Shown one piece after another: positions 37,924-60,901 of a DNA stretch of 64,000 bases. This stretch comes from Shigella phage SP21535. Under the pieces are notes generated by a model. That model did no database searches, was not told the origin of the DNA, and saw nothing but the letters and a program-made list of their open reading frames with translations. The first letter of the stretch is position 1. Each line of letters starts with the position of its first letter. The stretch lies in the sequence record PQ615101, one strand, 5' to 3'. Position numbers and translations under genes: made by a program.

Positions 37924-37953
37924 GTTTACACGTTGATGAGGTAGTGATACTAT
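37924..37953 (+). promoter_or_regulatory. early promoter (GTTTAC -35, TG-extended -10) within inverted repeat
   Basis: GTTTAC 37924-37929; TGaTACTAT; flanking GATGAG/CTCATC stem. Confidence 0.5.
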
Positions 37954-37983
37954 TATCTCATCAAAATTAATTAGGAAAATAAA

Positions 37984-38271
37984 ATGAAAACTTTCAAAGA
38001 ATTTACTTCTACAACTACCCCGGTTTCTACTATTACCGAAGCTACTCTTACTTCTGAGGTTATTAAAGCAAATAAAGGACGAGAAGGTAAACCAATGATT
38101 AGTCTGGCTGATGGTGAAGAAATCAAAGGTACTGTTTACCTAGGTGATGGGTGGTCTGCTAAAAAGGATGGTGCTACAATCGTTATCTCTCCTGCTGAAG
38201 AAACTGCGTTGTTTAAAGCTAAACACATTTCTGCGGCACATCTCAAAATTATTGCTAAAAATCTTTTGTAA
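37984..38271 (+). CDS. ipI: internal protein I (capsid-targeted, injected)
   Basis: 95 aa; N-terminal capsid targeting sequence ending ...ITE before mature Ala; gene order. Confidence 0.85.
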   Translation: MKTFKEFTSTTTPVSTITEATLTSEVIKANKGREGKPMISLADGEEIKGTVYLGDGWSAKKDGATIVISPAEETALFKAKHISAAHLKIIAKNLL

Positions 38272-38290
38272 TAAATAATTTCACAAAGTT

Positions 38291-38320
38291 GTTTACATAG
38301 GGTTTTAGTTGTGATACTAT
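38291..38320 (+). promoter_or_regulatory. early promoter stem-loop cassette
   Basis: GTTTAC 38291-38296; TGATACTAT; ATAGGG/CCCTAT stem. Confidence 0.5.
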
Positions 38321-38348
38321 TACCCTATCAACTACTGAGGAGAATAAA

Positions 38349-38534
38349 ATGAAACGTTGTGAATTAATTCGAAATGTTGCTATTGCAATTTCTGCTTCCG
38401 CTTTTAGTTTTTCAATGTTTGTTGGATTTATATGTGGATTATTAACTACAGCAGAAAATGTGTTTTCACTTGTAGTAGCATTTTTAATTGGTTTAATTGC
38501 TATCGTTATGGATAAAATTTCTAAAGGTGAATAG
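38349..38534 (+). CDS. small hydrophobic protein
   Basis: 60-aa ORF, predicted transmembrane helices. Confidence 0.45.
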   Translation: MKRCELIRNVAIAISASAFSFSMFVGFICGLLTTAENVFSLVVAFLIGLIAIVMDKISKGE

Positions 38535-38535
38535 A

Positions 38536-38916
38536 ATGTACAAAGTGTATGCGGATTATCAGGCTAATCCATCTGAAAAGCCAGGTTGTCAAATTGGATG
38601 GGCTCATGATACTTTGCTTGAAGCAGTAGATGCTGCTCAAAAATTGGGATATAAATATGTAGAGATTGTTCAACCGTCAGGAAAAGTTATTACTCTTGAA
38701 GAGTTCAATAACATTAAACCAAACTTTTTACTTTTTGCAGGTGATAATTATTATCCTCGTGGTGGATATGCTGATTTAATCGCGAAAGCCGCCACTGAAG
38801 ATGAACTCCGTGATATTATCAAAGAAAATGAAAATAAACCAGATTATGGTTCCAATCGTTTCGATTGGTGGCAAATTGTAAATGCCAATACTCATACTAT
38901 TGTTGATGAAGGCTGA
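38536..38916 (+). CDS. hypothetical protein
   Basis: ATG 38536 after RBS-like AAAGGTGA; track start 38497 is upstream alt start. Confidence 0.5.
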   Translation: MYKVYADYQANPSEKPGCQIGWAHDTLLEAVDAAQKLGYKYVEIVQPSGKVITLEEFNNIKPNFLLFAGDNYYPRGGYADLIAKAATEDELRDIIKENENKPDYGSNRFDWWQIVNANTHTIVDEG

Positions 38917-38918
38917 TA

Positions 38919-39206
38919 ATGATTCTTTATGCGAAAGTATCATCCATTGAAAATGGATATAAATATGATCAAGAAGCAGCTAAAGCCTTGATTGATGATT
39001 ATGGCGTTTTAACATGTTTTGAAGTTGAAAAGGTTTATGTTGACCGTTCATCTTCTCAAGTTAAATTAGTGAAGGAAGACCGTAAATTTAATACAGTAAA
39101 TTTTGATTTCTTTATTGAAACAGAAAAAGGTCCTCTTGAATATGATATTTTCAAGAATCCTTTGGGTCTTGAATGCATCGTAAGTATGTATCATCATAAA
39201 TGGTAA
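38919..39206 (+). CDS. hypothetical protein
   Basis: 95-aa ORF with start overlapping upstream stop. Confidence 0.5.
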   Translation: MILYAKVSSIENGYKYDQEAAKALIDDYGVLTCFEVEKVYVDRSSSQVKLVKEDRKFNTVNFDFFIETEKGPLEYDIFKNPLGLECIVSMYHHKW

Positions 39207-39303
39207 ATATGCTTTAAGAATTATTTGTTATTATTAACTCATATCGCACTGATTAATACCCTCTATCATCAAGGGTTCTTGTTAGAGAGCCTTTGTTAAT
39301 AAT

Positions 39304-39376
39304 TGGGAATTAGCCAAGTTGGTAAGGCATAGCACTTTGACTGCTAGATGCAAAGGTTCGAGTCCTTTATTCCCAG
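39304..39376 (+). tRNA. tRNA-Gln (anticodon TTG)
   Basis: Cloverleaf: acceptor TGGGAAT/ATTCCCA, anticodon loop CTTTGAC, T-arm GGTTCGAGTCC. Confidence 0.85.
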
Positions 39377-39377
39377 C

Positions 39378-39464
39378 GCGAGAATGGTCAAATTGGTAAA
39401 GGCACAGCACTTAAAATGCTGCGGAATGATTTCCTTGTGGGTTCGAGTCCCACTTCTCGTACCA
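39378..39464 (+). tRNA. tRNA-Leu (anticodon TAA), long variable arm, CCA encoded
   Basis: Acceptor GCGAGAA/TTCTCGT, anticodon loop CTTAAAA, T-arm GGTTCGAGTCC, 3' ACCA. Confidence 0.85.
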
Positions 39465-39470
39465 AAGTTT

Positions 39471-39542
<72 letters not shown>

Positions 39543-39554
39543 AAATTTAATTTA

Positions 39555-39628
39555 CTCCGTGTAGCTCAGTTTGGTAGAGCGTCTGCTTTGGGAGCAGAAT
39601 GTCGCAGGTTCAAATCCTGCCGCGGAGA
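39555..39628 (+). tRNA. tRNA-Pro (anticodon TGG)
   Basis: Acceptor CTCCGTG/CGCGGAG, anticodon loop TTTGGGA, T-arm GGTTCAAATCC. Confidence 0.85.
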
Positions 39629-39630
39629 CT

Positions 39631-39717
39631 GGAGGCGTGGCAGAGTGGTTTAATGCACCGGTCTTGAAAACCGGCAGTCGCTCCGGCGACTCATAGGTTC
39701 GAATCCTATCGCCTCCG
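39631..39717 (+). tRNA. tRNA-Ser (anticodon TGA), long variable arm
   Basis: Acceptor GGAGGCG/CGCCTCC, anticodon loop CTTGAAA, T-arm GGTTCGAATCC. Confidence 0.85.
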
Positions 39718-39724
39718 TAATTTC

Positions 39725-39797
39725 GCTGATTTAGCTCAGTAGGTAGAGCACCTCACTTGTAATGAGGACGTCGGCGGTTCGATTCCGTCAATCAGCA
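39725..39797 (+). tRNA. tRNA-Thr (anticodon TGT)
   Basis: Acceptor GCTGATT/AATCAGC, anticodon loop CTTGTAA, T-arm GGTTCGATTCC. Confidence 0.85.
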
Positions 39798-39803
39798 TAT
39801 CAA

Positions 39804-39875
39804 GGCCCTGTAGCTGGAAGGTTCAAGCAAGCGACTCATAATCGCCAGATGGTGGTTCAATTCCACCCAGGGCCA
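39804..39875 (+). tRNA. tRNA-Ile (anticodon CAT, presumably lysidine-modified) or tRNA-Met
   Basis: Acceptor GGCCCTG/CAGGGCC, anticodon loop CTCATAA, T-arm GGTTCAATTCC; T4-type phages carry a CAU-anticodon tRNA-Ile here. Confidence 0.75.
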
Positions 39876-39916
39876 TATTTTGGGAACATAAATACTCTTA
39901 GAAATAGGAGATATTT

Positions 39917-40582
39917 ATGTTCCATTACACTTATAAAATAACAAATAAAATTAATAATAAAATTTATATTGGTGTGCATTCTACCGAAAATTTAGATGAT
40001 GGATATATGGGTTCTGGTAAATTATTAAAAAGAGCCCAAGACAAGTATGGTATAGAAAATTTCTCTAAAGAAATATTAGAGTATTTTGATGATAAAGAAT
40101 CTATGCTTGAAGCCGAGAAAAATATTGTCACAGAAGAGTTTTTAAATAGACCAGATGTGTATAATTTAAAACTTGGCGGTGAAGGTGGATGGGACCATAT
40201 AAATATTCCTGGGATGCTAAACCAGAAGAAAGATGCTAGCTTAAAAGGAGCTAAATCGTTTAAATCACGTTTTGAAAATGATATTTTACTTCAAGAAAAA
40301 TATCGTAAAATTGGTTCAAATGTATTTAAACGTTTGTGGTCAACTCCTGAATACAAGGAAAAATTTTTAAATAATAGCAGATTTTTAAATAAGCATCATA
40401 CTCCTGAAACTATTAATAAAATGAAAGAAATTCACGCTAAAAATAATCACCAGAAAGGAGAAAAGAATTCCCAATTTGGTATGATGTGGATTCATTCATT
40501 AGATGAAAAAGTTTCTAAACGTATTAAGAAAACTGACCCAATTCCAGAAGGATGGTTTAAAGGTCGAAAAATGAAATTTTAA
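39917..40582 (+). CDS. segB: GIY-YIG homing endonuclease SegB
   Basis: 221 aa; FHYTYKITNKINNKIYIGVH...YMGSG; located between tRNA subclusters. Confidence 0.85.
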   Translation: MFHYTYKITNKINNKIYIGVHSTENLDDGYMGSGKLLKRAQDKYGIENFSKEILEYFDDKESMLEAEKNIVTEEFLNRPDVYNLKLGGEGGWDHINIPGMLNQKKDASLKGAKSFKSRFENDILLQEKYRKIGSNVFKRLWSTPEYKEKFLNNSRFLNKHHTPETINKMKEIHAKNNHQKGEKNSQFGMMWIHSLDEKVSKRIKKTDPIPEGWFKGRKMKF

Positions 40583-40585
40583 TTA

Positions 40586-40662
<77 letters not shown>

Positions 40663-41000
40663 GACAAGAAACCGGGTCGCTACCGGTAAGTCGTCGGACT
40701 GATGTTCCCTGGGTAAGGAATTGCGTTAATAAATCTTTATGATTTGTTGATGCCCTCTTACATCACAGCAGAAACGGCGCACCGAATTATCGATTCGAGG
40801 AAATATCTTTGCCGTAAGCCGAGTAGCGTTTTTGACGGAACGTTCGGATATGGTCGAGATATGGCCTTTTAAAAATATTAAGTAGCGTCAACTGCTTAAT
40901 AACCGGGTTCGAATCCCGGCGTTTCGTACAAACACTTGCCTTAGCAGGTGGAACCCCGACAAGGTTGCCGCAAGGCTTTAGCCCCGACCGAAAGGTTGGG
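40663..41000 (+). ncRNA. structured stable RNA region (T4 species 1/2 RNA-like, tRNA-like T-arm)
   Basis: No ORF; GC-rich helices; CCGGGTTCGAATCCCGG T-arm-like element at ~40902-40918; precedes terminator. Confidence 0.4.
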
Positions 41001-41006
41001 GCTTTT
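40981..41006 (+). terminator. rho-independent terminator, GNRA-capped hairpin
   Basis: GCCCCGACC-GAAA-GGTTGGGGC followed by TTTTT. Confidence 0.65.
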
Positions 41007-41009
41007 TGG

Positions 41010-41017
41010 TATAAATA
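41010..41017 (+). promoter_or_regulatory. late promoter TATAAATA
   Basis: Exact motif 40 nt upstream of ATG 41057. Confidence 0.45.
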
Positions 41018-41056
41018 TAGTAGTATATTAAATCACGAATTAAAACAGGAAATAAG

Positions 41057-41515
41057 ATGAAATCATATGCTCAATTTTTAAATGAAGCATCCGCTTCAGA
41101 TGTTCGCGCTGTAGCAACTGCTGCTATTAAAGCTGGTAAATATTCTTATAAAGATGCTTCTGACGAATCTCGGTACAAGTTCTACGACGATATGAGAGCT
41201 GAAGGCTTTGTGGGTAACTATGTTACCACCGCCTGGAAAAGCCTGGTTGCTACTGGTGCGGCTTTCGAAAAACCTTCTGGTAAACCTGCTCCTAAGGCTG
41301 ACCCTAAAGCAGCACAAGAAAAAAATATTGCTAAAGGAATTATTTCTAGGTATGAAGCAATTCTTAAAGAACTTTTGGTAATTAAGACCGAAGGCCAGAA
41401 ACTTGCGCGAGCTCATAGTTTCAAAGATAACCCACATGCTCATGACCTAGAGTATGTTGAAGATCTCCAAAAAATCATCAAAGACCGCATTTGGTCTGCT
41501 AAACAAATTAAATAA
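41057..41515 (+). CDS. internal-protein-like capsid-targeted protein
   Basis: 152 aa; N-terminus MKSYAQFLNE-A resembles the IP capsid targeting sequence; late promoter upstream. Confidence 0.55.
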   Translation: MKSYAQFLNEASASDVRAVATAAIKAGKYSYKDASDESRYKFYDDMRAEGFVGNYVTTAWKSLVATGAAFEKPSGKPAPKADPKAAQEKNIAKGIISRYEAILKELLVIKTEGQKLARAHSFKDNPHAHDLEYVEDLQKIIKDRIWSAKQIK

Positions 41516-41523
41516 CATTCTTA

Positions 41524-41549
41524 GCCCCAGCCGAAAGGTTGGGGCTTTT
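41524..41549 (+). terminator. rho-independent terminator, near-identical copy of 40981 hairpin
   Basis: GCCCCAGCC-GAAA-GGTTGGGGC followed by TTTT. Confidence 0.65.
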
Positions 41550-41725
41550 GGTATCTAGGCCTTTCTGGACCTCTCTAGGCATCATTTAGTTTATACCCTT
41601 TATAATATATTATCCTATCCTTTAATTGCCCATCCCTGCCCTAGAATTCCCTAAAACTTCCCCGTTCTTCCATGGTACTATACAACTATCAACTACTGAT
41701 ACAGAAAAACAACTTGGAGAATGAA

Positions 41726-41989
41726 ATGGATAATTACGGCGAACTGTTCAACTTCTTTATGAAATGCGTTTCAGAAGATTTCGGTCGTACAGTGAATGAT
41801 ATTAAAGTTATCGGTCCTGATCATCCGATGTTTGAAACTTACGCAGTAATGGGTAATGAAGATGGTCAGTGGTATACTGTAAAGGTTGTGATTAACATGT
41901 TCACTGCTGAAAGTTATGTTAAACTGTCTTCTAAAGTTTACCATGATAACGACGAAATCGCAGAAGAATATTTCAATAATATGAAATAA
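41726..41989 (+). CDS. hypothetical protein
   Basis: ATG 41726 after GGAGAATGAA RBS region; track start 41672 lies inside promoter-like element. Confidence 0.5.
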   Translation: MDNYGELFNFFMKCVSEDFGRTVNDIKVIGPDHPMFETYAVMGNEDGQWYTVKVVINMFTAESYVKLSSKVYHDNDEIAEEYFNNMK

Positions 41990-42044
41990 GTTTACATAGG
42001 CTCATGATTGAGATATTATGAGCCTATAATTTGAGGAAACTGTT

Positions 42045-42575
42045 ATGTCTCTTTATACCGAACTGAATGAAACTTCCGAAAAATCTTTTGATGGTATCTT
42101 ATCAATAATGCAAAAGCAGGTATTAGAACAGCTTAGTGAAGCCGCAAGCAACGGACATAAGGCTTGTCGAATCCCAAGCCCACATCGTCGCCTGTATGAA
42201 CGCCCTCTTATTAATTGGCTAGAAAGCGAAGGTCTTACAGTTAAGATTTGTCCTGCCAAATTTGATGTCCCACGTATTCTTAATATTTACTGGGATAAAC
42301 CGATTGAGAAACCGATTGAGAAAAGTGAACCTTGGGTTGTCAATGTAAAAACATATGATAATGGATGCTCACTTGAGGTGTCTGCTGTAATTAAAGGCAC
42401 TCACGGTGAAAAATCGTGGGGTTGGCCTGGTAAAGATAAAGAAATCGTGTTAAGTGTAAAAGCTACTAGTATTAGTACTCCTATAGCTAAAAGCATTATC
42501 GCCGCCGCTGTTGAAGAAGCTGAACGAATTTGTAAAATTAAAAATAGTTTACATCTCTTAAATAGCATGATATAA
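42045..42575 (+). CDS. hypothetical protein
   Basis: 176-aa ORF, GAGGA RBS; contains PIEK PIEK tandem motif. Confidence 0.5.
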   Translation: MSLYTELNETSEKSFDGILSIMQKQVLEQLSEAASNGHKACRIPSPHRRLYERPLINWLESEGLTVKICPAKFDVPRILNIYWDKPIEKPIEKSEPWVVNVKTYDNGCSLEVSAVIKGTHGEKSWGWPGKDKEIVLSVKATSISTPIAKSIIAAAVEEAERICKIKNSLHLLNSMI

Positions 42576-42618
42576 TTCTTCCACAGATTTTAATTTTTAA
42601 TCAACCTAAGGAAATACT

Positions 42619-43212
42619 ATGAACACACTGAAGAAAATTGTTGAGTTTATTCGCACTAAACTTGGTTCTGCTATGGCTAAAAATCTATCTGTTGAAGAAC
42701 AGTATACTGCTGCAGCAGCAAAACTGCTTGATAAAATTAAAGATCTAAAAACTGCTTCTGTTAAATCTATTAATGAAGAAAAACGTATTCGTGAACTTGT
42801 TATCGAAAAGAATCGACAAGCCGAATCAAAAGAGCGTGAAATTCGCAAACTTCTTTCCGAAGGTCAAGATGTAACAATGCATGCTAAGCTCGGTTTACTA
42901 TATCGTCGAACAGCTGAGCAGTTGACTACTAAAGCTGATGGTTATGCTGAAATGCGAATTGAAATCGCCAAGAAAGTAGTTGAGTTAGATGATGCTCGTC
43001 AAGAACTTGCAGTTAAATTGGAATATATCCGTGAAACTCGTGCAGCAAATGCCCTTGGAATTAGTACTGCCGATGATGTAGTTGAAATCGCAGCGCTAAC
43101 TAAGGTTGATATTGAAGATACTCTTGCTCGAGTTGAAACCTTTAACGGTAATATTTCCGGGGTTGAAACTACCTCTGCCGATGTTCAGGAATACATTAAT
43201 TCTCTGAAATAA
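42619..43212 (+). CDS. hypothetical coiled-coil protein (PspA-like helical repeat pattern)
   Basis: 197 aa, almost entirely heptad-like helical sequence. Confidence 0.45.
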
Positions 43213-43253
43213 TGATAAGGGGCTTCGGCCCCTATTACTTGGAGTAAATAGGA

Positions 43254-43862
43254 ATGAAAATGCAAAGTGATTTCAATTCAATGTTTGAAGAGTTCCAAAG
43301 ACAGGTTGATGTTCCAGACCAATTACTAAATGCTCTTAAACGTATGGCAGAAGGACGTAATTACTATTGGGGGTCTTCATATGAAACTGATGAAAGTCTT
43401 TCTGGAAGATTTTCTAGAGGTAAAAAGTCTTTAATACGTCCTGGAATACTCATTAAAAGTATTGAATCAATTCATTCATTGACGTGTGATTTTGATGTTG
43501 AATTTACTGATTTCATTTCTCCTGAATGGACGGTTTGTTATTTAAATGACGATTATGATTATCTTGGCGTTTATAGTTTAAGTGACGCATGGTTTAAACG
43601 TAATTTACAAAAGTCAAATTTGTTCTATATTGATACTACGGTAAAATTTCAGGGAAAGAAATATTTCTTTACTCTTATAGTTGATTCTGAAACAAAGCAT
43701 GAAAATAAACGTATTCTTAGTAAAAAGAATATCTTAACTATTGTTGATGATCTTTTTGATAAATTCGTGGAAAATCCTAATTTTGAAAGCGATTTATTAT
43801 TAGAAAAATTTGTTAAGGAATGTAGAGAATATGTCAAAGCCATCACTATACCTTCCAAGTAA
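43254..43862 (+). CDS. hypothetical protein
   Basis: 202-aa ORF with RBS. Confidence 0.5.
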   Translation: MKMQSDFNSMFEEFQRQVDVPDQLLNALKRMAEGRNYYWGSSYETDESLSGRFSRGKKSLIRPGILIKSIESIHSLTCDFDVEFTDFISPEWTVCYLNDDYDYLGVYSLSDAWFKRNLQKSNLFYIDTTVKFQGKKYFFTLIVDSETKHENKRILSKKNILTIVDDLFDKFVENPNFESDLLLEKFVKECREYVKAITIPSK

Positions 43863-44223
43863 ACCTGTGAAGTATGAACCAAAGCGTCAGCTAATTTCTA
43901 CTGATGTATTAATAGGTCCTGTTATACTCATATCATTTGTAATTCTATTGATTATTGGAGGTGTTTTAGATGTTATGACTGATATTGATTCTGGCGAAAT
44001 ACTTGTATTAATGCTAATTCTTCCATTAATAGTTCCATTTTTATTAGTACCTGTAAATTGGGTAGGATACTGGTATCAAGGAAGGCATTATCGTAAACGC
44101 GTACGTGATTGGAAAGCACAGTGTAAAAAGATTAAAAAGGAATATCAGCTTAAACTTGCTGCGTATGAATTTGATGAAATTATGAAATTTGTTAAGGAAT
44201 CACGATGCAAAAGCCAAAACTAA
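43810..44223 (+). CDS. small membrane protein (paralog family member 1)
   Basis: Two hydrophobic helices then basic C-terminus ending ...FVKESRCKSQN; true start uncertain. Confidence 0.45.
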   Translation: MLRNVENMSKPSLYLPSKPVKYEPKRQLISTDVLIGPVILISFVILLIIGGVLDVMTDIDSGEILVLMLILPLIVPFLLVPVNWVGYWYQGRHYRKRVRDWKAQCKKIKKEYQLKLAAYEFDEIMKFVKESRCKSQN

Positions 44224-44570
44224 ATAAAGTCAAATATTCGCTTCCTGAGTCATTTTTAATTTTTGCTGTGGCGTTGGCTGCAGCTCTTGCGGGTAGTCTT
44301 TTTGGATTGTTAATTGACGACTGTTTTATTTTAAACATCGATGGCACAGTAAATATAATAGAAGTTTGGAGTGAACTTCGCTATACTAAAATTATTTCAT
44401 TATTTTCATTCTTTTGTATCATTCTATATTTTCATTATGATAATTTTAAAATAAATTGGCAAAGAAAAAAGGATTACAAAATACAATTAAAAGAATATAA
44501 TAGCTACATGTCTTATATTGAAAATGAATCAATGAAAGAGTTTGTGAGTGATTGTAGGAAAATCAGATGA
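44205..44570 (+). CDS. small membrane protein (paralog family member 2)
   Basis: Hydrophobic helices then C-terminus ...FVSDCRKIR. Confidence 0.45.
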   Translation: MQKPKLNKVKYSLPESFLIFAVALAAALAGSLFGLLIDDCFILNIDGTVNIIEVWSELRYTKIISLFSFFCIILYFHYDNFKINWQRKKDYKIQLKEYNSYMSYIENESMKEFVSDCRKIR

Positions 44571-45055
44571 TTTTAAAAACTCGCTGGTATGATTTAGATG
44601 ATGGGGATGATGGCATTCCAGTTGATAGAGTTGACTGGAATGGCTGTTCCGAAGATATGAAAAATTTGCTGATTAGGGAGTTTAGAATGGGATATCAACC
44701 AGTTAAGCCATCTACTGCAACAGATGATAAATTCGTATGTATTCATAATGGTCGCGCTAAATTAACGAACGCTGATTGGTTCACAGATAAAATTATGATT
44801 CTGTGGTATATTATTAGTCTTCCTGTGACATCATTCGTATTTTACTTTTTTATAAAAAATCCAATGGACAGAATAGGAGATTGGATTCTTTTAACCATAC
44901 TTGTTAATATTTTTACAGCAGCAATATTATCTGGGATATGGTACACGTTCATTGAAATGCCATGGCGGCTACGCAGACAACAAAAGATTTTTGATGAAAA
45001 GAAATATACTCAAAATTTAAATAACTTTATCACTGAATGCAGGAAATTAAAATGA
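44567..45055 (+). CDS. small membrane protein (paralog family member 3)
   Basis: Hydrophobic helices then C-terminus ...FITECRKLK. Confidence 0.45.
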   Translation: MILKTRWYDLDDGDDGIPVDRVDWNGCSEDMKNLLIREFRMGYQPVKPSTATDDKFVCIHNGRAKLTNADWFTDKIMILWYIISLPVTSFVFYFFIKNPMDRIGDWILLTILVNIFTAAILSGIWYTFIEMPWRLRRQQKIFDEKKYTQNLNNFITECRKLK

Positions 45056-45492
45056 AAACACTATCAGCTGGTATTATCTTTATGACAGAAGATAAAGATT
45101 TATTCATGGGACGGGTTACTGGTTCTCGTAAGCCTGGAATGATGGCACATCGCTGGGATATCCCAAAGGGCCGCGTAGAAAATTCTGATTTAAGCGCACT
45201 AGATGCAGCACGAAGAGAATGTTTAGAAGAGACTGGTTTTAGCAATTATAATCCAGACCTTCTAGAAGACCTAGGTGTATTTAAATATTCTAGTAATAAA
45301 GACTTACAGTTATTTTATTATACGATTCCAGTAGAGCATGAGATGTTTAGAAATTGCCATTGCGAGTCTTATTTTGAAAATAAAGATGGCGTTATGATTC
45401 CAGAGATGGACGCTTTTGCTCTTATTCCTCGTACTCAGTGGCAATATGTGATGGGTCCTTCACTTTACCGAATAATGAACAACCTCTTTTAA
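45052..45492 (+). CDS. nudE: Nudix hydrolase NudE
   Basis: Nudix box GRVENSDLSALDAARRECLEETGF; ATG 45052 with AGGAAA RBS. Confidence 0.8.
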   Translation: MKTLSAGIIFMTEDKDLFMGRVTGSRKPGMMAHRWDIPKGRVENSDLSALDAARRECLEETGFSNYNPDLLEDLGVFKYSSNKDLQLFYYTIPVEHEMFRNCHCESYFENKDGVMIPEMDAFALIPRTQWQYVMGPSLYRIMNNLF

Positions 45493-46023
<531 letters not shown>

Positions 46024-46027
46024 AGTT

Positions 46028-46058
46028 GTTTACTTTCTCCTAGAACTGTGATAGTATA
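46028..46058 (+). promoter_or_regulatory. early promoter stem-loop cassette
   Basis: GTTTAC 46028-46033; AACTGTGA/TCACAGTT inverted repeat around -10. Confidence 0.45.
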
Positions 46059-46100
46059 TTCACAGTTACTAATTAAAATATTTACATTTAAAGGAAACAT

Positions 46101-48713: not shown

Positions 48714-48743
48714 GTTTACTTTTCCTCTTGACTGTGGTATAAT
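48714..48743 (+). promoter_or_regulatory. early promoter (GTTTAC ... TGgTATAAT)
   Basis: GTTTAC 48714-48719, TGGTATAAT 48735-48743, flanking inverted repeat. Confidence 0.55.
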
Positions 48744-48770
48744 TTTTCTATCAGTTAAGAGGAGAATAAC

Positions 48771-51826: not shown

Positions 51827-51838
51827 TAGGAGGCCTTT

Positions 51839-52515: not shown

Positions 52516-52519
52516 CATT

Positions 52520-52543
52520 AGTCTCCTTCGGGAGACTTTTTTC
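52520..52543 (+). terminator. rho-independent terminator
   Basis: AGTCTCC-TTCG-GGAGACT followed by TTTTTT. Confidence 0.65.
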
Positions 52544-52552
52544 ATTTTACCG

Positions 52553-52582
52553 GTTTACTTTCCGTTTGAGCTGTGGTACTAT
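52553..52582 (+). promoter_or_regulatory. early promoter cassette (GTTTAC ... TGGTACTATACAACTATC)
   Basis: GTTTAC 52553-52558; conserved GGTACTATACAACTATC block. Confidence 0.5.
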
Positions 52583-52610
52583 ACAACTATCGGATAAAGA
52601 GGAGAACATC

Positions 52611-52981: not shown

Positions 52982-52983
52982 GT

Positions 52984-53341: not shown

Positions 53342-53343
53342 TG

Positions 53344-53373
53344 GTTTACAAGTTGGCAAGGTTATGGTATAGT
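53344..53373 (+). promoter_or_regulatory. early promoter (GTTTAC ... TGGTATAGT)
   Basis: GTTTAC 53344-53349; TATAGT 53368-53373. Confidence 0.45.
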
Positions 53374-53505
53374 AATCTTGTCAACTGCCAAGGAGAAGAG
53401 AATGAAAATTTTGTTTGTTGTGTATGTGATGATTCAATATAATTACCCAATGTTTACTTATAATCTAGTGAACAACATTATTGATATTATTCAGAGGAGT
53501 ATGTA

Positions 53506-53691
53506 ATGACAAGTGAGCAGGCTTTTAAATTAAGAGAATTAATTGAGATGTATAGTAAAGCTGTTCATACATCAACAATTATTGATGAATCAGCTTTCTC
53601 CGGACATGCTAACAAGATTAAATACAAAACTCTTATGGAAGAAGCTAAAGTAAATCTTGATTCTTATATTGAAACTTTAATTGGTGAATAA
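53506..53691 (+). CDS. small helical protein, tandem paralog 5
   Basis: 61-aa ORF. Confidence 0.45.
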   Translation: MTSEQAFKLRELIEMYSKAVHTSTIIDESAFSGHANKIKYKTLMEEAKVNLDSYIETLIGE

Positions 53692-53959
53692 CATGGGCTT
53701 TCCTAAATTAGAAGTAGGTGATTTAGTTTTAACAAAATTATGGAATGGTGTTCAATCAGTAGAAATCTGCCAATATCGTGGAGCAACAGGTAATTTGATG
53801 TACACGATTTATAATCCAGAAATTTTGTTAGAGTGTCATTTGGAACGCTTTATAAAAGACACCGATAGTATGCCTTATAGTGTATCAATTGTACGTAAAT
53901 CTGATACAAAGGAATATTCTAAAATTTTAGAACAAATTCGTGCCAATAAAAAGGATTAA
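53681..53959 (+). CDS. hypothetical protein
   Basis: 92-aa ORF. Confidence 0.45.
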   Translation: MVNNMGFPKLEVGDLVLTKLWNGVQSVEICQYRGATGNLMYTIYNPEILLECHLERFIKDTDSMPYSVSIVRKSDTKEYSKILEQIRANKKD

Positions 53960-54500
53960 TATGAAACGATTAGTATTAGAAGTTAGTTCACTTTTTGGTG
54001 AATTGGCTATAGAAAAAGTAAATAATATGTATCGTTTGACGCAAGAAGATGATATGCTATATTTTACGCCTAGTGAAATCATTCATTTAACCCAAATTGA
54101 AAATCCTTATACTGATAAAATTGTAAGCATTAATGATGAGCATAAAATTCATTTTTATTCTTCATGCCCAGGATTTAATATTGAAAGCGAGTCAATATGC
54201 TTATCAGTTATCCATTGGGATAGTTTTATAGATAAGATTAAATATTTTTATTATTCTAATGAAAGAAAACATAGTTTAAAATGGCTTAAAAATTGCAATG
54301 CTATTATTACTAACGCTTGTGATCAGTGCGATCAGAATGATGAAACTGATACTTATATGTGTGTTTTAAAAGCTGGTGGTGACCGTCATCCGGATTTTAT
54401 TTCTATTCGTCAAAACAATGGAGAAATTTCATTATCAAAATCAGAAGCTGAAGCTATGATTAAGTATTTAACAACTGTTACACCTTCAATGAAAGGATGA
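53940..54500 (+). CDS. hypothetical Cys-rich protein
   Basis: 186-aa ORF. Confidence 0.45.
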   Translation: MPIKRINMKRLVLEVSSLFGELAIEKVNNMYRLTQEDDMLYFTPSEIIHLTQIENPYTDKIVSINDEHKIHFYSSCPGFNIESESICLSVIHWDSFIDKIKYFYYSNERKHSLKWLKNCNAIITNACDQCDQNDETDTYMCVLKAGGDRHPDFISIRQNNGEISLSKSEAEAMIKYLTTVTPSMKG

Positions 54501-54982
54501 TTATAATTATGATTATTAATGAAAACTCTTGGCACTATAAAATTTACTCGGCATTTAATAGCACATGGAATCGTCCAAAAACGTTATGTGCTTATTTTTG
54601 GAAAACGTTTCTCCCGGTATTAGCTGTTTCAATTGTTGGATTTGCAACTTTAGCAGGTGCCGCAATAATTGGCCAAGAAATTTTAATTAAATTCTTTGTC
54701 TTTAGTAGTCTATGGACATTAGTTCCGGCTTCAATTGGTATAGGCATTTTAGCATTATCGGTTATGGTTCTTATTGCTGTCGGGGCGGTAATTGGTCCTT
54801 CCTGGTTGTTAGACAAATATAACGACCGAAAGCTCAATAAAGAAATTGAGTTCATTGTACAAAACGAAGAACGAATCAAAAATGGACTTGAGCCTATTCA
54901 ACCCAAGAAATCGATTATCGTTGAATTTTTAAAAGCTCGTAAAGCTAAAGTATGTCCTGTTATTGAATATAAGGCTGAATGA
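54497..54982 (+). CDS. polytopic membrane protein
   Basis: 161 aa with several hydrophobic helices. Confidence 0.5.
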   Translation: MIIIMIINENSWHYKIYSAFNSTWNRPKTLCAYFWKTFLPVLAVSIVGFATLAGAAIIGQEILIKFFVFSSLWTLVPASIGIGILALSVMVLIAVGAVIGPSWLLDKYNDRKLNKEIEFIVQNEERIKNGLEPIQPKKSIIVEFLKARKAKVCPVIEYKAE

Positions 54983-55992
54983 TGAAAACAGTAATGAAAA
55001 GTTATTTTGGTAGTCATCTTTATGGAACTTCTACCCCAGAATCTGATGTAGATTTTAAAGAAATCTTTGTTCCTCCTGCTCGCGATATTCTTATTGGAAA
55101 TGTTAAAGAGCACATGAGTAAAAACACTAACAACACATCATCTAAAAACACTAAAGATGATATTGACCACGAATTGTATAGTCTTAAGTATTTCTTTAAA
55201 TTAGCAGCAGATGGTGAAACTGTAGCATTAGATATGCTTCACACTCCACCTGAGCTAGTGGTTAAATCTGATTTGCCTGATGTGTGGAAGTTTATTCAAG
55301 ACAACCGTTCTCGTTTTTATACGACTAACATGAAATCCTATTTAGGATATGTCCGTAAGCAAGCTTCTAAATACGGTGTCAAGGGTTCTCGTTTGGCCGC
55401 ATTACGTGATGTATTGAAAGTAGTTAATCAAATCCCTGACCAGTGGGTCGACTATCAAGAAGGAATCCCTGATAGACTTCGTCGCACTAAAGTTGAAGAT
55501 ATTAAGCATCGTCTTCCAGAAAACGAGTTCTGTGAATGGGTGTTCCATAATTATGAGAAAACAGGCCCGCAAATGTTCTACACTGTGTTGGGTCGTAAAT
55601 ATCAGACAACGCTTTCTCTTATTGAGCTTAAGCAGTCACTGAACAAATTAGATGCTGAATATGGTGAACGTGCCCGTAAGGCCGAAGCCAACGAAGGTAT
55701 TGACTGGAAAGCTCTGAGCCATGCTTGTCGTGGTGGACTTCAACTATTGGAAATTTACAAAACTGGTGACTTGGTTTATCCACTTCAAGACGCTCCATTT
55801 ATTCTTGACGTGAAGTTGGGTAAACATCCATTTAAAACGGTTCAAGAGTTTTTGGAAGATGTGGTCGATCAAGTAGAAGCAGCATCTACTGAAGCTTCTA
55901 AGAACGGTATGCCTAAAACAGTAGACATGAGTTTCTGGGATGACTTCCTTGAGAAGGTCTATCTTGAAAACCACCGAAGTTATTATAAATGA
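54979..55992 (+). CDS. predicted nucleotidyltransferase (Pol-beta-like fold)
   Basis: N-terminal GSHLYGTSTPESDVDF resembles the G[SG]-x(9-13)-DxD NTase signature. Confidence 0.5.
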   Translation: MMKTVMKSYFGSHLYGTSTPESDVDFKEIFVPPARDILIGNVKEHMSKNTNNTSSKNTKDDIDHELYSLKYFFKLAADGETVALDMLHTPPELVVKSDLPDVWKFIQDNRSRFYTTNMKSYLGYVRKQASKYGVKGSRLAALRDVLKVVNQIPDQWVDYQEGIPDRLRRTKVEDIKHRLPENEFCEWVFHNYEKTGPQMFYTVLGRKYQTTLSLIELKQSLNKLDAEYGERARKAEANEGIDWKALSHACRGGLQLLEIYKTGDLVYPLQDAPFILDVKLGKHPFKTVQEFLEDVVDQVEAASTEASKNGMPKTVDMSFWDDFLEKVYLENHRSYYK

Positions 55993-56207
55993 TAGGGAGC
56001 CTTCGGGCTTATGGTACTATACAACTATCAAAACAAACACTTAAACGGAAAAACAAAATGAAAATTACACCAATTGAAGTAAAAAAGTTGATTGATACAG
56101 AAGAAATTTCAGAGTGTTTTGAAAGTTTCTTAGAAGATGCAACTGAAGATAATGCAGTTTATCTCGCTCAGAAAATTATCGAAACTTATTTGGAGAAGAA
56201 TCAATGA
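55989..56207 (+). CDS. hypothetical protein
   Basis: 72-aa ORF; actual start may be internal ATG after promoter cassette. Confidence 0.35.
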   Translation: MIGSLRAYGTIQLSKQTLKRKNKMKITPIEVKKLIDTEEISECFESFLEDATEDNAVYLAQKIIETYLEKNQ

Positions 56208-56467
56208 CAGTTTACGTAGATGTTTTAATGAATCATGGATGGAAACTTCGCGGTCATCCAACTAAAAATTGTCATATGTTCACTGATGGAGATATTGAAG
56301 AGCTTCACGAAATGGCAGAAGCAATAGGAATGAAACGTTCTTGGTTTCAAGATAAACGCATTAAACATTATGACTTACACGCTCGGCGACGCCAAAAAGC
56401 TGTAGAACTTGGAGCTGTAGAAGTATCTCGTCGCGAAGCAGTAAAAATTTGGCAAACATTAAAATAA
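56204..56467 (+). CDS. hypothetical protein
   Basis: 87-aa ORF overlapping upstream stop. Confidence 0.45.
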   Translation: MTVYVDVLMNHGWKLRGHPTKNCHMFTDGDIEELHEMAEAIGMKRSWFQDKRIKHYDLHARRRQKAVELGAVEVSRREAVKIWQTLK

Positions 56468-56470
56468 ATT

Positions 56471-56500
56471 GTTTACAGCAGGGTAGTAGTGTGATACTAT
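56471..56500 (+). promoter_or_regulatory. early promoter stem-loop cassette (copy of the 38291 element)
   Basis: GTTTAC 56471-56476; GTGATACTATTACCCTATCAA identical to 38310-38330. Confidence 0.5.
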
Positions 56501-56524
56501 TACCCTATCAAAACAAATGTAAAA

Positions 56525-57505
56525 TTGGAGAATAAAATGAAAACTGTAACTATCAATAAGGGTATCTACTTCGGTAAAGAAATCTCTGGAACTTTTGAGC
56601 TCTTAGGCGAATGGTTCCCAGATAATGCTCCGGTAGATGTACAAGGAGATGGTAAAGTTTTTGTTGAAATTGACGGTAAACGTCGCGGTGTTTGGGTTTA
56701 CAAATCAGACATTTCATATGATGGTGTAAAAGTTGAAGAAGTTAAAGAATCGTATGAAGATATGAAAACCCGCATTAATAAAAGATTTAATGTTATGGGA
56801 ATGATGACGAATGGTATTATTAATGGAAACATTCGTTCATTAATTATCTCTGGTGCGGCGGGTATTGGTAAAACGTATTCTTTAGATAAAGCTTTGAATA
56901 AAGCAAATGATAATGGATACATTGAATATAAAAGCATTAACGGTAAAATCTCTGGTATTGGTCTTTATGAGCAGCTTTGGAATAATCGTGAAGAGAATTC
57001 TGTCCTTTTGATTGATGATGTGGATGTTTTCTCTGATATGGACATTCTTAATCTTCTAAAAGCCGCTCTGGACACTGGAGAGACCCGTAAAGTCTGCTGG
57101 AGCACTGCATCTTCTTACTTAGAAGAAAAAGGCATTGAGCGTGAGTTTGAATTTAAAGGAACGATTGTTTTTATCACAAACGTTGACATTGACCGCGAAT
57201 TAGACCGTGGTACTAAACTTGCTCCACATTTACAAGCATTAGTATCCCGCTCAGTTTATTTGGATTTGGGTGTTCACACTAATGAAGAAATTATGGTCAG
57301 GGTTGAAGATGTTATTCTTTCAACCGACATGATGCAAAAGCGCGGTCTTTCTGATGAAGAAACTTATAAAGCATTATCATGGATGAAAGTCAATGTTAAT
57401 CGTTTACGCAATGTTTCACTGCGTACTGCACTTTATCTTGCTGACTTTATTATGACCGACAAAAACGGTTGGCAAGAAATTGCTGAGGTTACTCTTCTGA
57501 AATAA
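56525..57505 (+). CDS. AAA+ family ATPase
   Basis: Walker A GAAGIGKT, Walker B LLIDDVD. Confidence 0.6.
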   Translation: MENKMKTVTINKGIYFGKEISGTFELLGEWFPDNAPVDVQGDGKVFVEIDGKRRGVWVYKSDISYDGVKVEEVKESYEDMKTRINKRFNVMGMMTNGIINGNIRSLIISGAAGIGKTYSLDKALNKANDNGYIEYKSINGKISGIGLYEQLWNNREENSVLLIDDVDVFSDMDILNLLKAALDTGETRKVCWSTASSYLEEKGIEREFEFKGTIVFITNVDIDRELDRGTKLAPHLQALVSRSVYLDLGVHTNEEIMVRVEDVILSTDMMQKRGLSDEETYKALSWMKVNVNRLRNVSLRTALYLADFIMTDKNGWQEIAEVTLLK

Positions 57506-57912: not shown

Positions 57913-57942
57913 GTTTACAAGACTGTTCCTCTGTGGTACTAT
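57913..57942 (+). promoter_or_regulatory. early promoter stem-loop cassette
   Basis: GTTTAC 57913-57918; CTGTTCCTC/GAGGAACAG stem around GGTACTATACAACTATC. Confidence 0.5.
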
Positions 57943-57970
57943 ACAACTATCAACTACGGAGGAACAGAAA

Positions 57971-58498
57971 ATGAACGCTAAAGATATTTTCAACCTGGTA
58001 AATTACAACGATGGTAAATTTAAATCAGAAGCACAAAGCAAGTTCTTTAATGACATCTCAATCGAAGGTGAAATCACGGTTGACGGAGGACAAATTTATA
58101 AATCCCGTTGGAATTGGATCGTTATTATCGATGAGATTGGTATTGTAGAAATTTACAAGAATACGAATAAAAATCGTACATTACACTGGTCTCGTGATAC
58201 TAACGAACAGTACAAAAAGGATAAAGCATCTAAATTATCTCGTGTAACTCAAGAAGATATTGAGTTCATCAAGAAAGATATTTTGATGTATGATAACTTA
58301 ATTGCTGAAGAGCAAGCTGTTATTGATAAATTTGACGAGATTAAAGCTTCTCATGAAATTCCTGATTTTATGAAAGAATCAGTAAATGAACGATACACTC
58401 TCATTTCAGAGCGTATTGAAACTTACAAAAAGCAAAGAGCTGAACGCCAGAACACTCTTCGGAAATTTGAAGAACGGTTAAAGACGGTACTCGCATAA
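57971..58498 (+). CDS. hypothetical protein
   Basis: 175-aa ORF with RBS GGAGGAACAG. Confidence 0.5.
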   Translation: MNAKDIFNLVNYNDGKFKSEAQSKFFNDISIEGEITVDGGQIYKSRWNWIVIIDEIGIVEIYKNTNKNRTLHWSRDTNEQYKKDKASKLSRVTQEDIEFIKKDILMYDNLIAEEQAVIDKFDEIKASHEIPDFMKESVNERYTLISERIETYKKQRAERQNTLRKFEERLKTVLA

Positions 58499-58553
58499 CC
58501 GCTTTATACCAAGGATGGTATAATGGTTCTAAGCCCTTTTAATTGAGATTATT

Positions 58554-58961
58554 ATGAAACAGTTGATAATTAAAAGATTGAATTTATTGATATGTTGTTT
58601 ATGTATAGCAATTGCATACGGTTATTACGCAATTAATGATTATATGCATTATAAAGATTATGATGTTACTGTAGTTAATACCATTACAGGAACACAAGGA
58701 AAAGGGTCTAGTTTATCGTTTATTGCTGTATATGAACTCAAAGACGGTTATAGATTTAGTGAATATATTTCCCCAGAGATGTATTCTTCAATAGAAAAAG
58801 GTGATAATATTACTGTAAGTTTACGTCCTTTCGACGTAAAACAGACACTGTTTGATAATATTGTTTGGTTCTTTGGGATGGTATTAGTTCAATCTGTGTG
58901 CGGTGCTTATGTAGTCTGTTCAATCATATTCTGTGTATTTAGTAAAATTGAAATTGAGTGA
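58554..58961 (+). CDS. membrane protein
   Basis: 135 aa, N- and C-terminal hydrophobic helices. Confidence 0.45.
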   Translation: MKQLIIKRLNLLICCLCIAIAYGYYAINDYMHYKDYDVTVVNTITGTQGKGSSLSFIAVYELKDGYRFSEYISPEMYSSIEKGDNITVSLRPFDVKQTLFDNIVWFFGMVLVQSVCGAYVVCSIIFCVFSKIEIE

Positions 58962-58968
58962 GGAAAAT

Positions 58969-59856
58969 ATGTCAGTAGCAATTAATAATGTCAATGCAGT
59001 AATTAAATCTTTAGTTAATAAAAAATCAAATGAATGGACTGTACTTCGCCGTGGAGAGCCAGATAAATTTTTTCATAGATTTAACCCAACTTTGGATTTG
59101 AATGTTATCGACAAAGATGTTCATGCTGAAATTTTAGATAAATTTAAAGTTGATATTGGATTTGGATTAGAAAAACATTTACAGCGACCAAACGGGTCTG
59201 GAATGCTTTTATCTAAACGCATTATGAAAGCCCTTAATAAAATTGGAGCGTTGTCTCGTATTAATGCGAGCGAAATCCTTCGTAATTATAATAAAGGATA
59301 TGACCTTTACGGTCGACTAATGCCAAAATTATCATTCGATCAAATGATTGCGGATTTGTGGGAAAATCAACGACGATTATTAGCATTAGGCGCTCGATTA
59401 GCTAAAGGTCTAGATAAACAAATGATTTTTAAGACCAATAATACAGAAGACCTTAAATGCTTTAAATTTAGTATTCGCGGAGATGATTATTACATCAGAG
59501 CTCGCTCTACAGATTATGTTAATATGGGGCATCATCTCTGTTTAGCTTTTGAAGTTTTAAAAGAAGCTGGAACATTAGAATATTCATCTGGTGCAAAATG
59601 CCCTATTGGTTCAAGTTGTATTTTAATTTATCGCCCGAATGAATCCAGTTCAACTACATTGCCTACAAAACCTGTACCGGTTCGTAGTAATGAAAAACAT
59701 TCTGAACAAATTGATTATTTTAATAAGCAAATTGAAGAACTGAATATTTCTATTCAACAATATGATGATGAAATTTTCAGACTATCTGGATTGAGTAGTA
59801 AAGCTAAATCTGAGCGTGAAAAGTTAATTAAAATTGTTGATTTACTTAAATCTTAA
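58969..59856 (+). CDS. hypothetical protein with C-terminal coiled coil (tandem family member 1)
   Basis: ATG 58969 after GAGGAAAA RBS. Confidence 0.5.
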   Translation: MSVAINNVNAVIKSLVNKKSNEWTVLRRGEPDKFFHRFNPTLDLNVIDKDVHAEILDKFKVDIGFGLEKHLQRPNGSGMLLSKRIMKALNKIGALSRINASEILRNYNKGYDLYGRLMPKLSFDQMIADLWENQRRLLALGARLAKGLDKQMIFKTNNTEDLKCFKFSIRGDDYYIRARSTDYVNMGHHLCLAFEVLKEAGTLEYSSGAKCPIGSSCILIYRPNESSSTTLPTKPVPVRSNEKHSEQIDYFNKQIEELNISIQQYDDEIFRLSGLSSKAKSEREKLIKIVDLLKS

Positions 59857-59864
59857 GGAACACC

Positions 59865-60872
59865 ATGAAAACTCGTTCTCAAATTGAAGATATGGTTCGT
59901 AATGCCAGTTATACTCGTGATGTTATGACATTTTTGTGTGAAAATAATTTAGACCCTGATAAAGTTAATCGTGTTATTCATCACTTTAAGTATACGAATA
60001 GCAGTGAATGGGTGCGTAATTTTAGTAAAGCGGGATATATTACACAAATGACTGCTCGTGAGCAGCTCACCGATTTCTGTAAAACTATTGATTATAAAAA
60101 TCCTCTATTTGTTCAAGGCGTTGGTCAAAGTAAGGTCGATTTATCATCTGGATTTTTCAATCCAAATCATTATCGTATTGAATGGAGATTTATTGCTCTG
60201 TTCCGTAGACAATTAAAGCAAATTTTATCAACTGCGAGTCGATTAAAAGGTTCTGATATTAACTTAAAGAATCTGAAATTTGATGGTTATACTCTTCAGA
60301 TGGAAGTAAGACCATTAAAAGAAAATAATAGAACTGCACGAATTAGCTTTAAACCTAATACAAAAAATTCTCTTTCAATTTGCGAATGCCTTAAATCACA
60401 GTTGACAGAAGCATTTAAGTATATGGATGTTGTTGCTGCTGTTCAATCTAAGATTTTACCTCGTTTTGAGCGAAATTGGGAACATACAACAACATATGAA
60501 CTTGATATGATCGTTTCATTTAAATACGATTTTTTGAGAAAGGACGAAGTCCCGCAAGAGAAAAAACCTGAACCCCAAACTAATTACTCATCAAACGATC
60601 CTAAATTTTGGATGTATAGTTCAGGTAATAAAGATGCATGGAAATTCAATAAAGTGAATTTTCTTTCTGTTGAAAATCCGAGTCTTAAACCTGTTGAAAA
60701 ATGGTACGCGGATGCGATTGAGAAGTCCCTTAAGGCAGTAGATGATGAACTCGTTAAAGCGACCAATGAAGTGCTAGAAGCTGAAAAGGCGTTAGAACAA
60801 GCTCAGTCAAGGGTTCAAAATCTGACAAAGCAACGTTCTAAACTGAACAATGCACTAAATGCACTGAACTAG
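59865..60872 (+). CDS. hypothetical protein with C-terminal coiled coil (tandem family member 2)
   Basis: 335-aa ORF. Confidence 0.5.
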   Translation: MKTRSQIEDMVRNASYTRDVMTFLCENNLDPDKVNRVIHHFKYTNSSEWVRNFSKAGYITQMTAREQLTDFCKTIDYKNPLFVQGVGQSKVDLSSGFFNPNHYRIEWRFIALFRRQLKQILSTASRLKGSDINLKNLKFDGYTLQMEVRPLKENNRTARISFKPNTKNSLSICECLKSQLTEAFKYMDVVAAVQSKILPRFERNWEHTTTYELDMIVSFKYDFLRKDEVPQEKKPEPQTNYSSNDPKFWMYSSGNKDAWKFNKVNFLSVENPSLKPVEKWYADAIEKSLKAVDDELVKATNEVLEAEKALEQAQSRVQNLTKQRSKLNNALNALN

Positions 60873-60901
60873 TTTACTTTGCCACAAGGATGTGGTATAA
60901 T
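60873..60901 (+). promoter_or_regulatory. early promoter (GTTTAC ... TGGTATAAT)
   Basis: GTTTAC 60873-60878; TGGTATAAT 60893-60901. Confidence 0.55.

Follow-up and report, generated by a model that had tools for sequence, protein, structure and literature searches.

Probable early-promoter elements in the accessory region

The 64,000-nucleotide stretch of Shigella phage SP21535 analysed here (sequence record PQ615101; the whole stretch is called the window) was identified by megablast and by alignment with T4 as belonging to a T4-like phage, a Tequatrovirus. Positions 37000–57000 matched >1000 T4-like phages, the top matches being vB_vPM_PD112 (PD112) and CE1 with 97% identity. Positions 33875–64000 aligned to 78000–46521 of T4 (AF158101) on the opposite strand, so that T4 early transcription corresponds to the + strand of the window. 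The region starts at gene 57B and ipI, continues through a tRNA cluster, e, regB, tk and rI, and ends in the nrdC genes; the window has 36% G+C and 64% A+T. An Rfam search of 36000–64000 returned eight tRNAs and nothing else. Lying before small genes of this accessory region were copies of a short element, the subject of this report, which consists of the hexamer GTTTAC, a TG-extended −10 sequence and, in the majority, an inverted repeat that surrounds the −10.

A search of the whole window for GTTTAC-N15-TGnTAnnnT gave 10 exact matches, all on the + strand and none on the − strand, starting at 37924, 38291, 42547, 46028, 48714, 52553, 53344, 56471, 57913 and 60872. When one mismatch was allowed, 14 matches were found; 100 dinucleotide shuffles gave 1.9 ± 1.3, never as many as 14. 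Shuffles thus rejected a chance origin both for the motif copies and for the folds described below. A generic sigma-70 scan was barely enriched (57 vs 51.8; 74 vs 56.3) and failed to set these sites apart from background; the signal therefore belongs specifically to the T4-type motif. Together with the one-mismatch copy at 41990 there were 11 intact copies, and two truncated copies were found at 41652 and 55991 (Table 1). The consensus of the intact copies was GTTTACat...TGTG.TA.tAT, and in all 10 exact copies the N15 between GTTTAC and TG gives a hexamer spacing of 17 bp. The 30 nt upstream of the copies averaged 74.5% A+T against 64% for the window, showing that an A/T-rich UP region is present. 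All elements fell within 37.9–60.9 kb, the first 37.9 kb of the window holding none, and all lay on the early-direction strand 20–45 nt ahead of a ribosome-binding site and ATG. In the complete 169 kb genome of the related phage BCH953P4, which was used for genome-wide tests on early promoters, the exact pattern occurred 29 times, on a single strand.

Table 1. Map of the putative early promoters of SP21535. Positions are those of the window; folds are in kcal/mol and z-scores (z) are against dinucleotide shuffles.
Feature	Position (bp)	Strand	Motif	Inverted repeat and fold	Remarks
Early promoter before ipI	37924..37983	+	exact; −35 37924–37929, TGn-10 37945–37953	arms 37933–37946/37951–37964; fold −15.5, z −4.2	ATG 37984; kept in relatives
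Early promoter before trna.4	38291..38348	+	exact; −10 38315–38320	ATAGGGT/ACCCTAT around −10; z −1.8	ATG 38349
Truncated early promoter before e.8	41652..41725	+	TGG-TACTAT 41673–41681		leader intact; UP and −35 deleted
Early promoter before 176-aa open reading frame (ORF), e.7 slot	41990..42044	+	one mismatch; GTTTAC, AGA for TGn, −10 TATTAT 42014–42019	perfect 10-bp repeat ATAGGCTCAT/ATGAGCCTAT around −10; fold −18.1, z −3.45	
Early promoter before e.6	42547..42618	+	exact; −10 TATAAT 42571–42576	no hairpin; fold −0.4, z +1.1	
Early promoter after gene e	46028..46100	+	exact; −10 46052–46057	AACTGTGA/TCACAGTT (46041–46051/46060–46071); z −3.25	
regB early promoter	48714..48770	+	exact; −10 48738–48743	48714–48737 with 48748–48770; fold −22.4, z −5.0	ATG 48771
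Terminator and early promoter before mobD.5	52520..52610	+	exact; −35 52553, −10 52577–52582	weak hairpin; z −0.56	
Early promoter before mobD.2	53344..53401	+	exact; −10 53368–53373	15-bp hairpin, 53351–53365 with 53372–53386; z −4.05	
Truncated early promoter after nrdC.11	55991..56057	+	TGG-TACTAT 56012–56020 kept		terminator tail, UP, −35 and spacer deleted
Early promoter before nrdC.10	56471..56536	+	exact; −10 56495–56500	GGGTAGTAGT/ACTATTACCC; z −3.2	right end of 515-bp variable cassette
Early promoter before nrdC.8	57913..57970	+	exact; −10 57937–57942	fold −23.2, z −6.2	ATG 57971
Early promoter of nrdC.4, fused to nrdC.3 body	60872..60929	+	exact; −10 60896–60901	CCACA/TGTGG in spacer only	ATG 60930

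Several copies were nearly identical to one another over part of their length. The 17-mer GGTACTATACAACTATC occurred four times, at 41674, 52575, 56013 and 57935, and the 21-mer GTGATACTATTACCCTATCAA twice, at 38311 and 56491, with a further copy at 37944 that differed by three mismatches; no occurrence of either was expected by chance. The copy at 38291 had 25 nt of UP and −35 sequence in common with that at 37924 and 22 nt with that at 56471 (family D1), and the longest exact blocks common to copies measured 18–25 nt (shared-block families D1–D7). An earlier note, made from the letters of the sequence alone, had described a family of repeated GTTTAC elements with a TG-extended −10, and this family is real. 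Its list of copies was right at most positions, with 42547 and 41990 missing and the last copy placed at 60873 instead of 60872, and its near-identical subfamilies were recovered, the coordinates given for the 17-mer each being one too low. The note had also called the elements promoters, which the following comparison with T4 upholds.

The hexamer GTTTAC is the published T4 early −35 sequence, at −36 to −31 (PMC1524935), and T4 early promoters have an 'uber' UP/−35/TGn/−10 architecture (PMC2988021). The T4 early motif TGTG(A/G)TA(C/T)(A/T)AT is quoted in a T4 differential RNA sequencing (dRNA-seq)/nicotinamide adenine dinucleotide (NAD)-cap preprint (bioRxiv 10.1101/2024.04.04.588121). The copy at 48714 was identical to the T4 sequence upstream of regB (131/131 bp), a gene that has an early promoter and whose product cleaves its own ribosome-binding site (PMC3014915). 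Additionally, 41673–41706 was 100% identical over 34 bp, from the −10 into the leader, to the T4 motA promoter, whose −35 and −10 are annotated in record Z48569. For 11 of the 13 copies, matched by gene order, the counterpart in Yersinia phage fPS-90 is labelled 'predicted early promoter' in the GenBank record of that phage. The T4 record AF158101 itself has no promoter features, and a literature search for further T4 start-site maps found none. The promoter at 41990 also stands before e.7 in T4; in AF158101 the 5′ arm of the hairpin of this e.7 promoter, at ~70.37 kb, contains an ambiguous base N (ATAGGCTNATGATT).

The elements are thus very probably sigma-70-dependent early promoters of a T4-like phage, to which a putative hairpin layer and a layer of correlation with breakpoints are added. 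On the basis of the sequence and of what is established for T4, host RNA polymerase would bind the A/T-rich UP region and would then read the T4-type −35, GTTTAC(A/T), followed by the extended −10 (TGn) with TAnnnT at the 17-bp hexamer spacing. Transcription would start about 7 nt downstream of the −10, giving a leader of 20–37 nt with a GGAG-type ribosome-binding site. The resulting promoter map, of 11 intact and two crippled copies, can be used in annotating SP21535.

The −35 was missing from two copies. At the 41652 site, the UP element and −35 are supplied in 11 of 11 relatives by 32 additional bp (TTTT.AAAAATTTTTTCACAAAACTGTTTACA); the deletion was also found in phiC600P9. At the 55991 site, PD112, fPS-90 and NIC06P2 held ~52–54 extra bp including GGTTTACAAGCATAAAGCT, as did T4 at its nrdC.10 promoter. 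These extra bases are the terminator tail, UP element, −35 and spacer, and the deletion was common to no other record among the matches listed. By these alignments, both are predicted promoters of the ordinary kind that have lost the UP and −35 through short deletions and have kept the TGn, −10 and leader. The −35-less variants that had been placed near 41660 and 56000 therefore do lack a −35, but as deletion derivatives relative to every sampled relative with the locus they make up no separate class. An assembly error is a possibility alongside natural promoter-down variation, given that this genome also carries one-base frameshifts in vs.3 and an ip4-like gene. If the two losses are real, reduced early expression is predicted for e.8 and for the small ORFs after nrdC.11.

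The frameshift in vs.3 (48434–48711) is a one-base deletion in a C run relative to T4 (CCCC to CCC near 48477) that leaves two short ORFs. The copy at 46028 now precedes the ip4-like gene (46101–46575; ATG 46101), which starts MKTYQEFITE and meets a stop after 19 codons, the remainder lying in another frame (46177–46575). This is either a frameshifted gene or a sequencing error. Between a duplicated terminator and the e.8 promoter, 41560–41672 is a C-rich, pyrimidine-rich stretch (CCCATCCCTGCCCTAGAATTCCC...TTCCCCGTTCTTCC) that is kept in relatives and is atypical for a window of 36% G+C.

Two further sites resembled the element. The segment 36446–36475, GTTTAATGCTTCAGTTTCATGTGTTATAAT, before gene 1 was among the one-mismatch matches and has a TGCTT MotA box with an extended −10; its fold (z −3.2) brings the spacer into pairing with the leader and ribosome-binding site. 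These motifs suggest a middle promoter of gene 1, and one is annotated there in the fPS-90 record. The segment 63100–63129, GTTTACACTGATGAAGAAACAGTATATAAT, lies within coding sequence, upstream of pin; its −35 and −10 are perfect, but it lacks both TGn and a hairpin and is possibly a weak or internal promoter.

Inverted repeats and read-through RNA

Folding of the 62 nt from the −35 onward gave 9 of the 11 intact copies a more stable structure than their dinucleotide shuffles (P<0.05). Of these, seven had z-scores of −3.2 to −6.2 (rounded: 37924, −4.2; 41990, −3.5; 46028, −3.3; 48714, −5.0; 53344, −4.1; 56471, −3.2; 57913, −6.2), the folds of 38291 and 60872 were weaker, and 42547 and 52553 gave no hairpin signal. 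The minimum-energy helix enclosed the −10 hexamer in 9 of the 11 intact copies, which bears out the claim that the −10 lies inside an inverted repeat in most of them. Counted from the −35, the 5′ arm occupies positions 7–24, that is, the spacer, and the 3′ arm positions ~28–44, reaching 57 at regB and 64 at nrdC.8. At these two copies the 3′ arm runs over the ribosome-binding site, GAGGAG at regB and GGAGG at nrdC.8; at nrdC.8 the spacer sequence GTTCCTC pairs with GAGGAAC, which is the ribosome-binding site, and the accessibility of this site was 0.27 in read-through RNA vs 0.41.

With transcription predicted to start at about position 37, the transcript of an element's own promoter lacks the 5′ arm, and the hairpin is therefore possible only in RNA that reads through from upstream. 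In most copies, the 5′ arm would be the −35/−10 spacer and the 3′ arm would lie in the first 5–25 transcribed bases. At regB and nrdC.8, the read-through hairpin would bury the ribosome-binding site together with the GGAG target of RegB, and translation and RegB sensitivity would then depend on the promoter that made the RNA. At the other copies, the hairpin would be an intercistronic structure, a barrier at a 3′-end or an attenuator.

The sense strand folded better than the antisense strand in 9 of the 11 copies, by a mean of 4.2 kcal/mol (Wilcoxon P=0.03), a bias that favours a role at the RNA level. Of the 29 early promoters of BCH953P4, 13 had z ≤ −3. CCTC or CTCC, the complement of the ribosome-binding site, was found in 7 of the 29 spacers against 1.8 expected (P=0.0002), and in 14 the ribosome-binding site paired with bases upstream of the start. 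Across that genome, the accessibility of the ribosome-binding site was 0.42 in read-through RNA vs 0.55 in RNA from the gene's own promoter (P=0.005). We tentatively suggest, while rather doubting it, that in a third to half of T4-type early promoters the spacer may be the 5′ arm of a hairpin, often with CCTC, the gene being translated and exposed to RegB only on RNA from its own promoter and silent on read-through. Such a 'which promoter made me' switch for early promoters was not found described in T4 reviews and may stand in the older T4 literature. The statistical support for a ribosome-binding-site complement in early-promoter spacers is the only mildly new angle, and it leaves the classification of the elements unchanged.

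Rearrangement breakpoints and alternative readings

Twelve relatives were aligned with the window, the matches were chained and the breakpoints downstream of 37000 were clustered. This gave 51 clusters, 14 of which fell in element footprints. Random positions predicted 3.0 (0 of 10,000 trials reached 14) and random gene starts 6.7 (P=0.006), so that about a quarter of the local breakpoint clusters coincide with promoters, roughly twice the rate at other gene starts. Copies that share blocks of 18–25 nt would mark the edges of autonomous cassettes and would coincide with indels and swaps more often than other gene junctions do, as a correlation. The earlier note had suggested that the elements may also act as homology blocks for modular shuffling, with synteny breakpoints at the elements as the sign of it; the breakpoints are enriched there, but the link is by correlation only and is weakened by the junction test and by the clusters found elsewhere, both given below. 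A homology-block role is consistent with these data on that correlative basis.

Three slots, those of ipI, e.7 and nrdC.11/nrdC.10, have elements on both sides. The ipI cassette lies between 37924 and 38291, and its slot, 37984–38271, was swapped among relatives. In the e.7 slot, the window, T4 and T2 each held a different cassette, with junctions at the edges of the elements at 41990 and 42547. The boundaries of the nrdC.11/nrdC.10 slot, 56009 and 56525, recurred in 9 relatives with five different contents, one of which, in HY01, was a complete promoter-ORF-terminator unit. A further junction, that of the denV indel, lies at 46070/46075, directly after the 3′ arm of the element at 46028. Eight sampled relatives, including HY01 and RB51, held ~412 extra bp at 46070–46075, annotated or shown as denV (endonuclease V, ultraviolet repair) in HY01, RB51 and fPS-90; PD112 was without them. 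In the window, denV was absent from this locus, and tblastn of the window gave no convincing match.

A number of results weigh against the reading of the elements as early promoters with hairpin and breakpoint layers. Promoter function in SP21535 is one that we infer from close homology. Within the window alone, the accessibility of the ribosome-binding site was 0.47 in read-through RNA vs 0.53 in own-promoter RNA, which was not significant (P=0.24), and this site was clearly covered by only 2 of the 11 hairpins. In a terminator scan the −10-spanning hairpins, which have no U tract, were not canonical terminators; the sole canonical terminator beside a promoter was that at 52520–52537 (GTCTCC-TTCG-GGAGAC followed by T6), upstream of 52553. 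Among orthologue substitutions at paired positions, 14 kept pairing and 12 broke it, a ratio close to that expected from transitions alone; at 57913 pairs were broken by five of six. In favour of the stems, two double compensatory changes were seen, at 46028 in T4 and at 52553 in TH09, and at 53344 all four distinct substitutions kept pairing; covariation among orthologues at ~95% identity was too sparse to decide on the stems.

The breakpoint layer has its own counter-evidence. Junctions that carry a promoter were hit in 7 of 12 cases (8 of 13 with 46028) vs 15 of 46 of the remaining junctions (Fisher P=0.18), roughly three in four clusters lay away from the elements, and the clusters, drawn from the 12 relatives sampled, are not independent events. 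Many rearrangements used a terminator repeat, homing-endonuclease genes (insertions at 57486/57512 and in the tRNA region) or stop/start overlaps. An inserted ORF at 41057–41515 was flanked by a duplicated 29-nt terminator hairpin (AGCCCC..GAAA..GGGGCTTTT; 40978–41006/41521–41549; D12). The ORF was missing in T4, T2 and VEc74, and the RB51 record notes a '34 bp imperfect direct repeat' at its locus; this unit is a cassette bounded by terminators, not promoters. The deletion of nrdC.4, which joined the promoter, leader and first three codons of that gene to the body of nrdC.3 (junction 60933–60949), crossed over in 8–17 bp of microhomology, ACTCGTAA, at the coding start of two paralogous genes and not in a promoter. 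The same fusion was present in PD112 and BCH953P4.

Such results might suggest that the elements are promoters and nothing more, their similarity being convergence on an optimal polymerase site, the breakpoints a product of selection at the boundaries of dispensable cassettes, and the repeats functionless. Gene boundaries are breakpoint-rich in any case, as the 15 hits among 46 promoterless junctions and the non-significant junction test show; the stem substitutions of orthologues look near neutral; and the unit that HY01 carries in the nrdC.11/nrdC.10 slot is a full one with promoter, ORF and terminator. We regard this account as rather unlikely. It is opposed by identity that extends beyond the positions read by polymerase, for example ACAACTATCAACTAC downstream of the −10 and the 34 bp common with the distant motA promoter, by the excess of hairpins (z to −6 in the window and 13 of 29 at z ≤ −3 in BCH953P4), by the excess of ribosome-binding-site complement in the spacers, by the sense-strand folding bias and the compensatory changes, and by the excess of breakpoints over random gene starts.

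A quite possible alternative, though one we lean against, takes the elements strictly as promoter-early stem-loops (PeSLs; Arbiol et al. 2010, PMC2839356; Comeau et al. 2014, PMC4122927, the latter on the PST/T4 pair), with stems that terminate or attenuate upstream transcripts and cassettes that recombine, for instance as mini-circles, and so drive shuffling. The architecture fits, since the class most often seen in phi1/RB49 has its stem-loop overlapping the −10 or placed between the −10 and the −35 (PMC2839356), and PeSLs have been reported for the PST/T4 pair (PMC4122927). The breakpoint enrichment and the three element-bounded slots point the same way. However, the stems are A/U-rich with no U tract after them, the exact shared blocks are just 18–25 nt, the right junction of the e.7 slot lies in the e.6 leader and not in a shared promoter, and the nrdC.4 deletion used no promoter pair. 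In BCH953P4, promoters preceded by a terminator tended to have no hairpin (1 of 7 vs 12 of 22 with z ≤ −3), which fits a hairpin that handles incoming transcription but is just a trend (P=0.09–0.11). It is far less probable, indeed very improbable, that the inverted repeats serve as operators to which a DNA-binding protein of the phage or its host binds, such as an unidentified early-promoter shut-off factor. A dimer bound to the repeats, whose centre is the −10, would block polymerase, and the early-promoter shut-off mechanism has been described as incompletely understood (PMC3014915); against this, the arm sequences vary among promoters with no common half-site, the stems hold G-T pairs, which can form in RNA but break a DNA palindrome, folding is poorer on the antisense strand, and several promoters have no repeat. 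A protein-binding palindrome was rejected on the ground that the arms share no sequence. A transposon or miniature inverted-repeat transposable element (MITE) is improbable; terminal repeats and target duplications are absent from the copies, which are explained as promoters.

Comparison with known systems

The observation is already known, in that it is covered by the T4 early-promoter literature and by the PeSL papers of 2010 and 2014 (PMC2839356, PMC4122927). It shows that T4 early promoters and PeSL-type cassettes can be recognised from raw sequence alone; the finding itself matters little and rediscovers published biology. The SP21535 elements have the same motif, spacing, strand and genomic positions as the T4 early promoters (Pe). 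The T4 positions matched are those of ipI, trna.4, e.8, the e.7 slot, e.6, the internal-protein slot after e, regB, mobD.5, mobD.2, nrdC.10, nrdC.8 and nrdC.4. By approximate mapping, the −10 boxes of T4 fall near 73.93, 73.56, 70.70, 70.37, 66.47, 62.78, 58.76, 57.97, 53.92 and 50.96 kb on its minus strand. They differ from Pe in that two copies have lost the UP and −35 by deletion and in that 41990 has AGA for TGn; there was no other substantive difference.

The 5′ regions of the T-even ip genes, as they are presented where PMC4122927 cites Repoila et al. 1994, resemble the ipI slot and the slot after e, both of which were swapped between relatives while the promoter, the leader and the first ~10 codons stayed homologous. 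On that account, the T-even case concerns ip loci only, whereas the SP21535 elements also stand before unrelated genes.

The hairpins that mask translation in T4 e, soc, 49 and I-TevI hide the ribosome-binding site only in the long upstream transcript, and a promoter within the DNA that encodes their 5′ strand yields a shorter, translatable RNA (PMC3014915). The predicted folds match this geometry at regB and nrdC.8 and, in BCH953P4, at 14 of the 29 early promoters. The T4 examples have a late or middle promoter inside the structure, which delays expression, whereas the internal promoter in SP21535 is early, and the effect would be to restrict translation to promoter-proximal early RNA.

Like the PeSLs, the SP21535 elements combine a strong early promoter with a stem-loop, cluster in variable accessory regions ahead of small genes and in a number of cases lie near indels or cassette swaps that separate close relatives. 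The PeSL stems of RB49/phi1 are G/C-rich and one was shown to terminate, whereas those of SP21535 are A/U-rich without a U tract. In the PST/T4 pair the stem-loops lie just upstream of the promoter (PMC4122927, legend), whereas most SP21535 stems span the −10.

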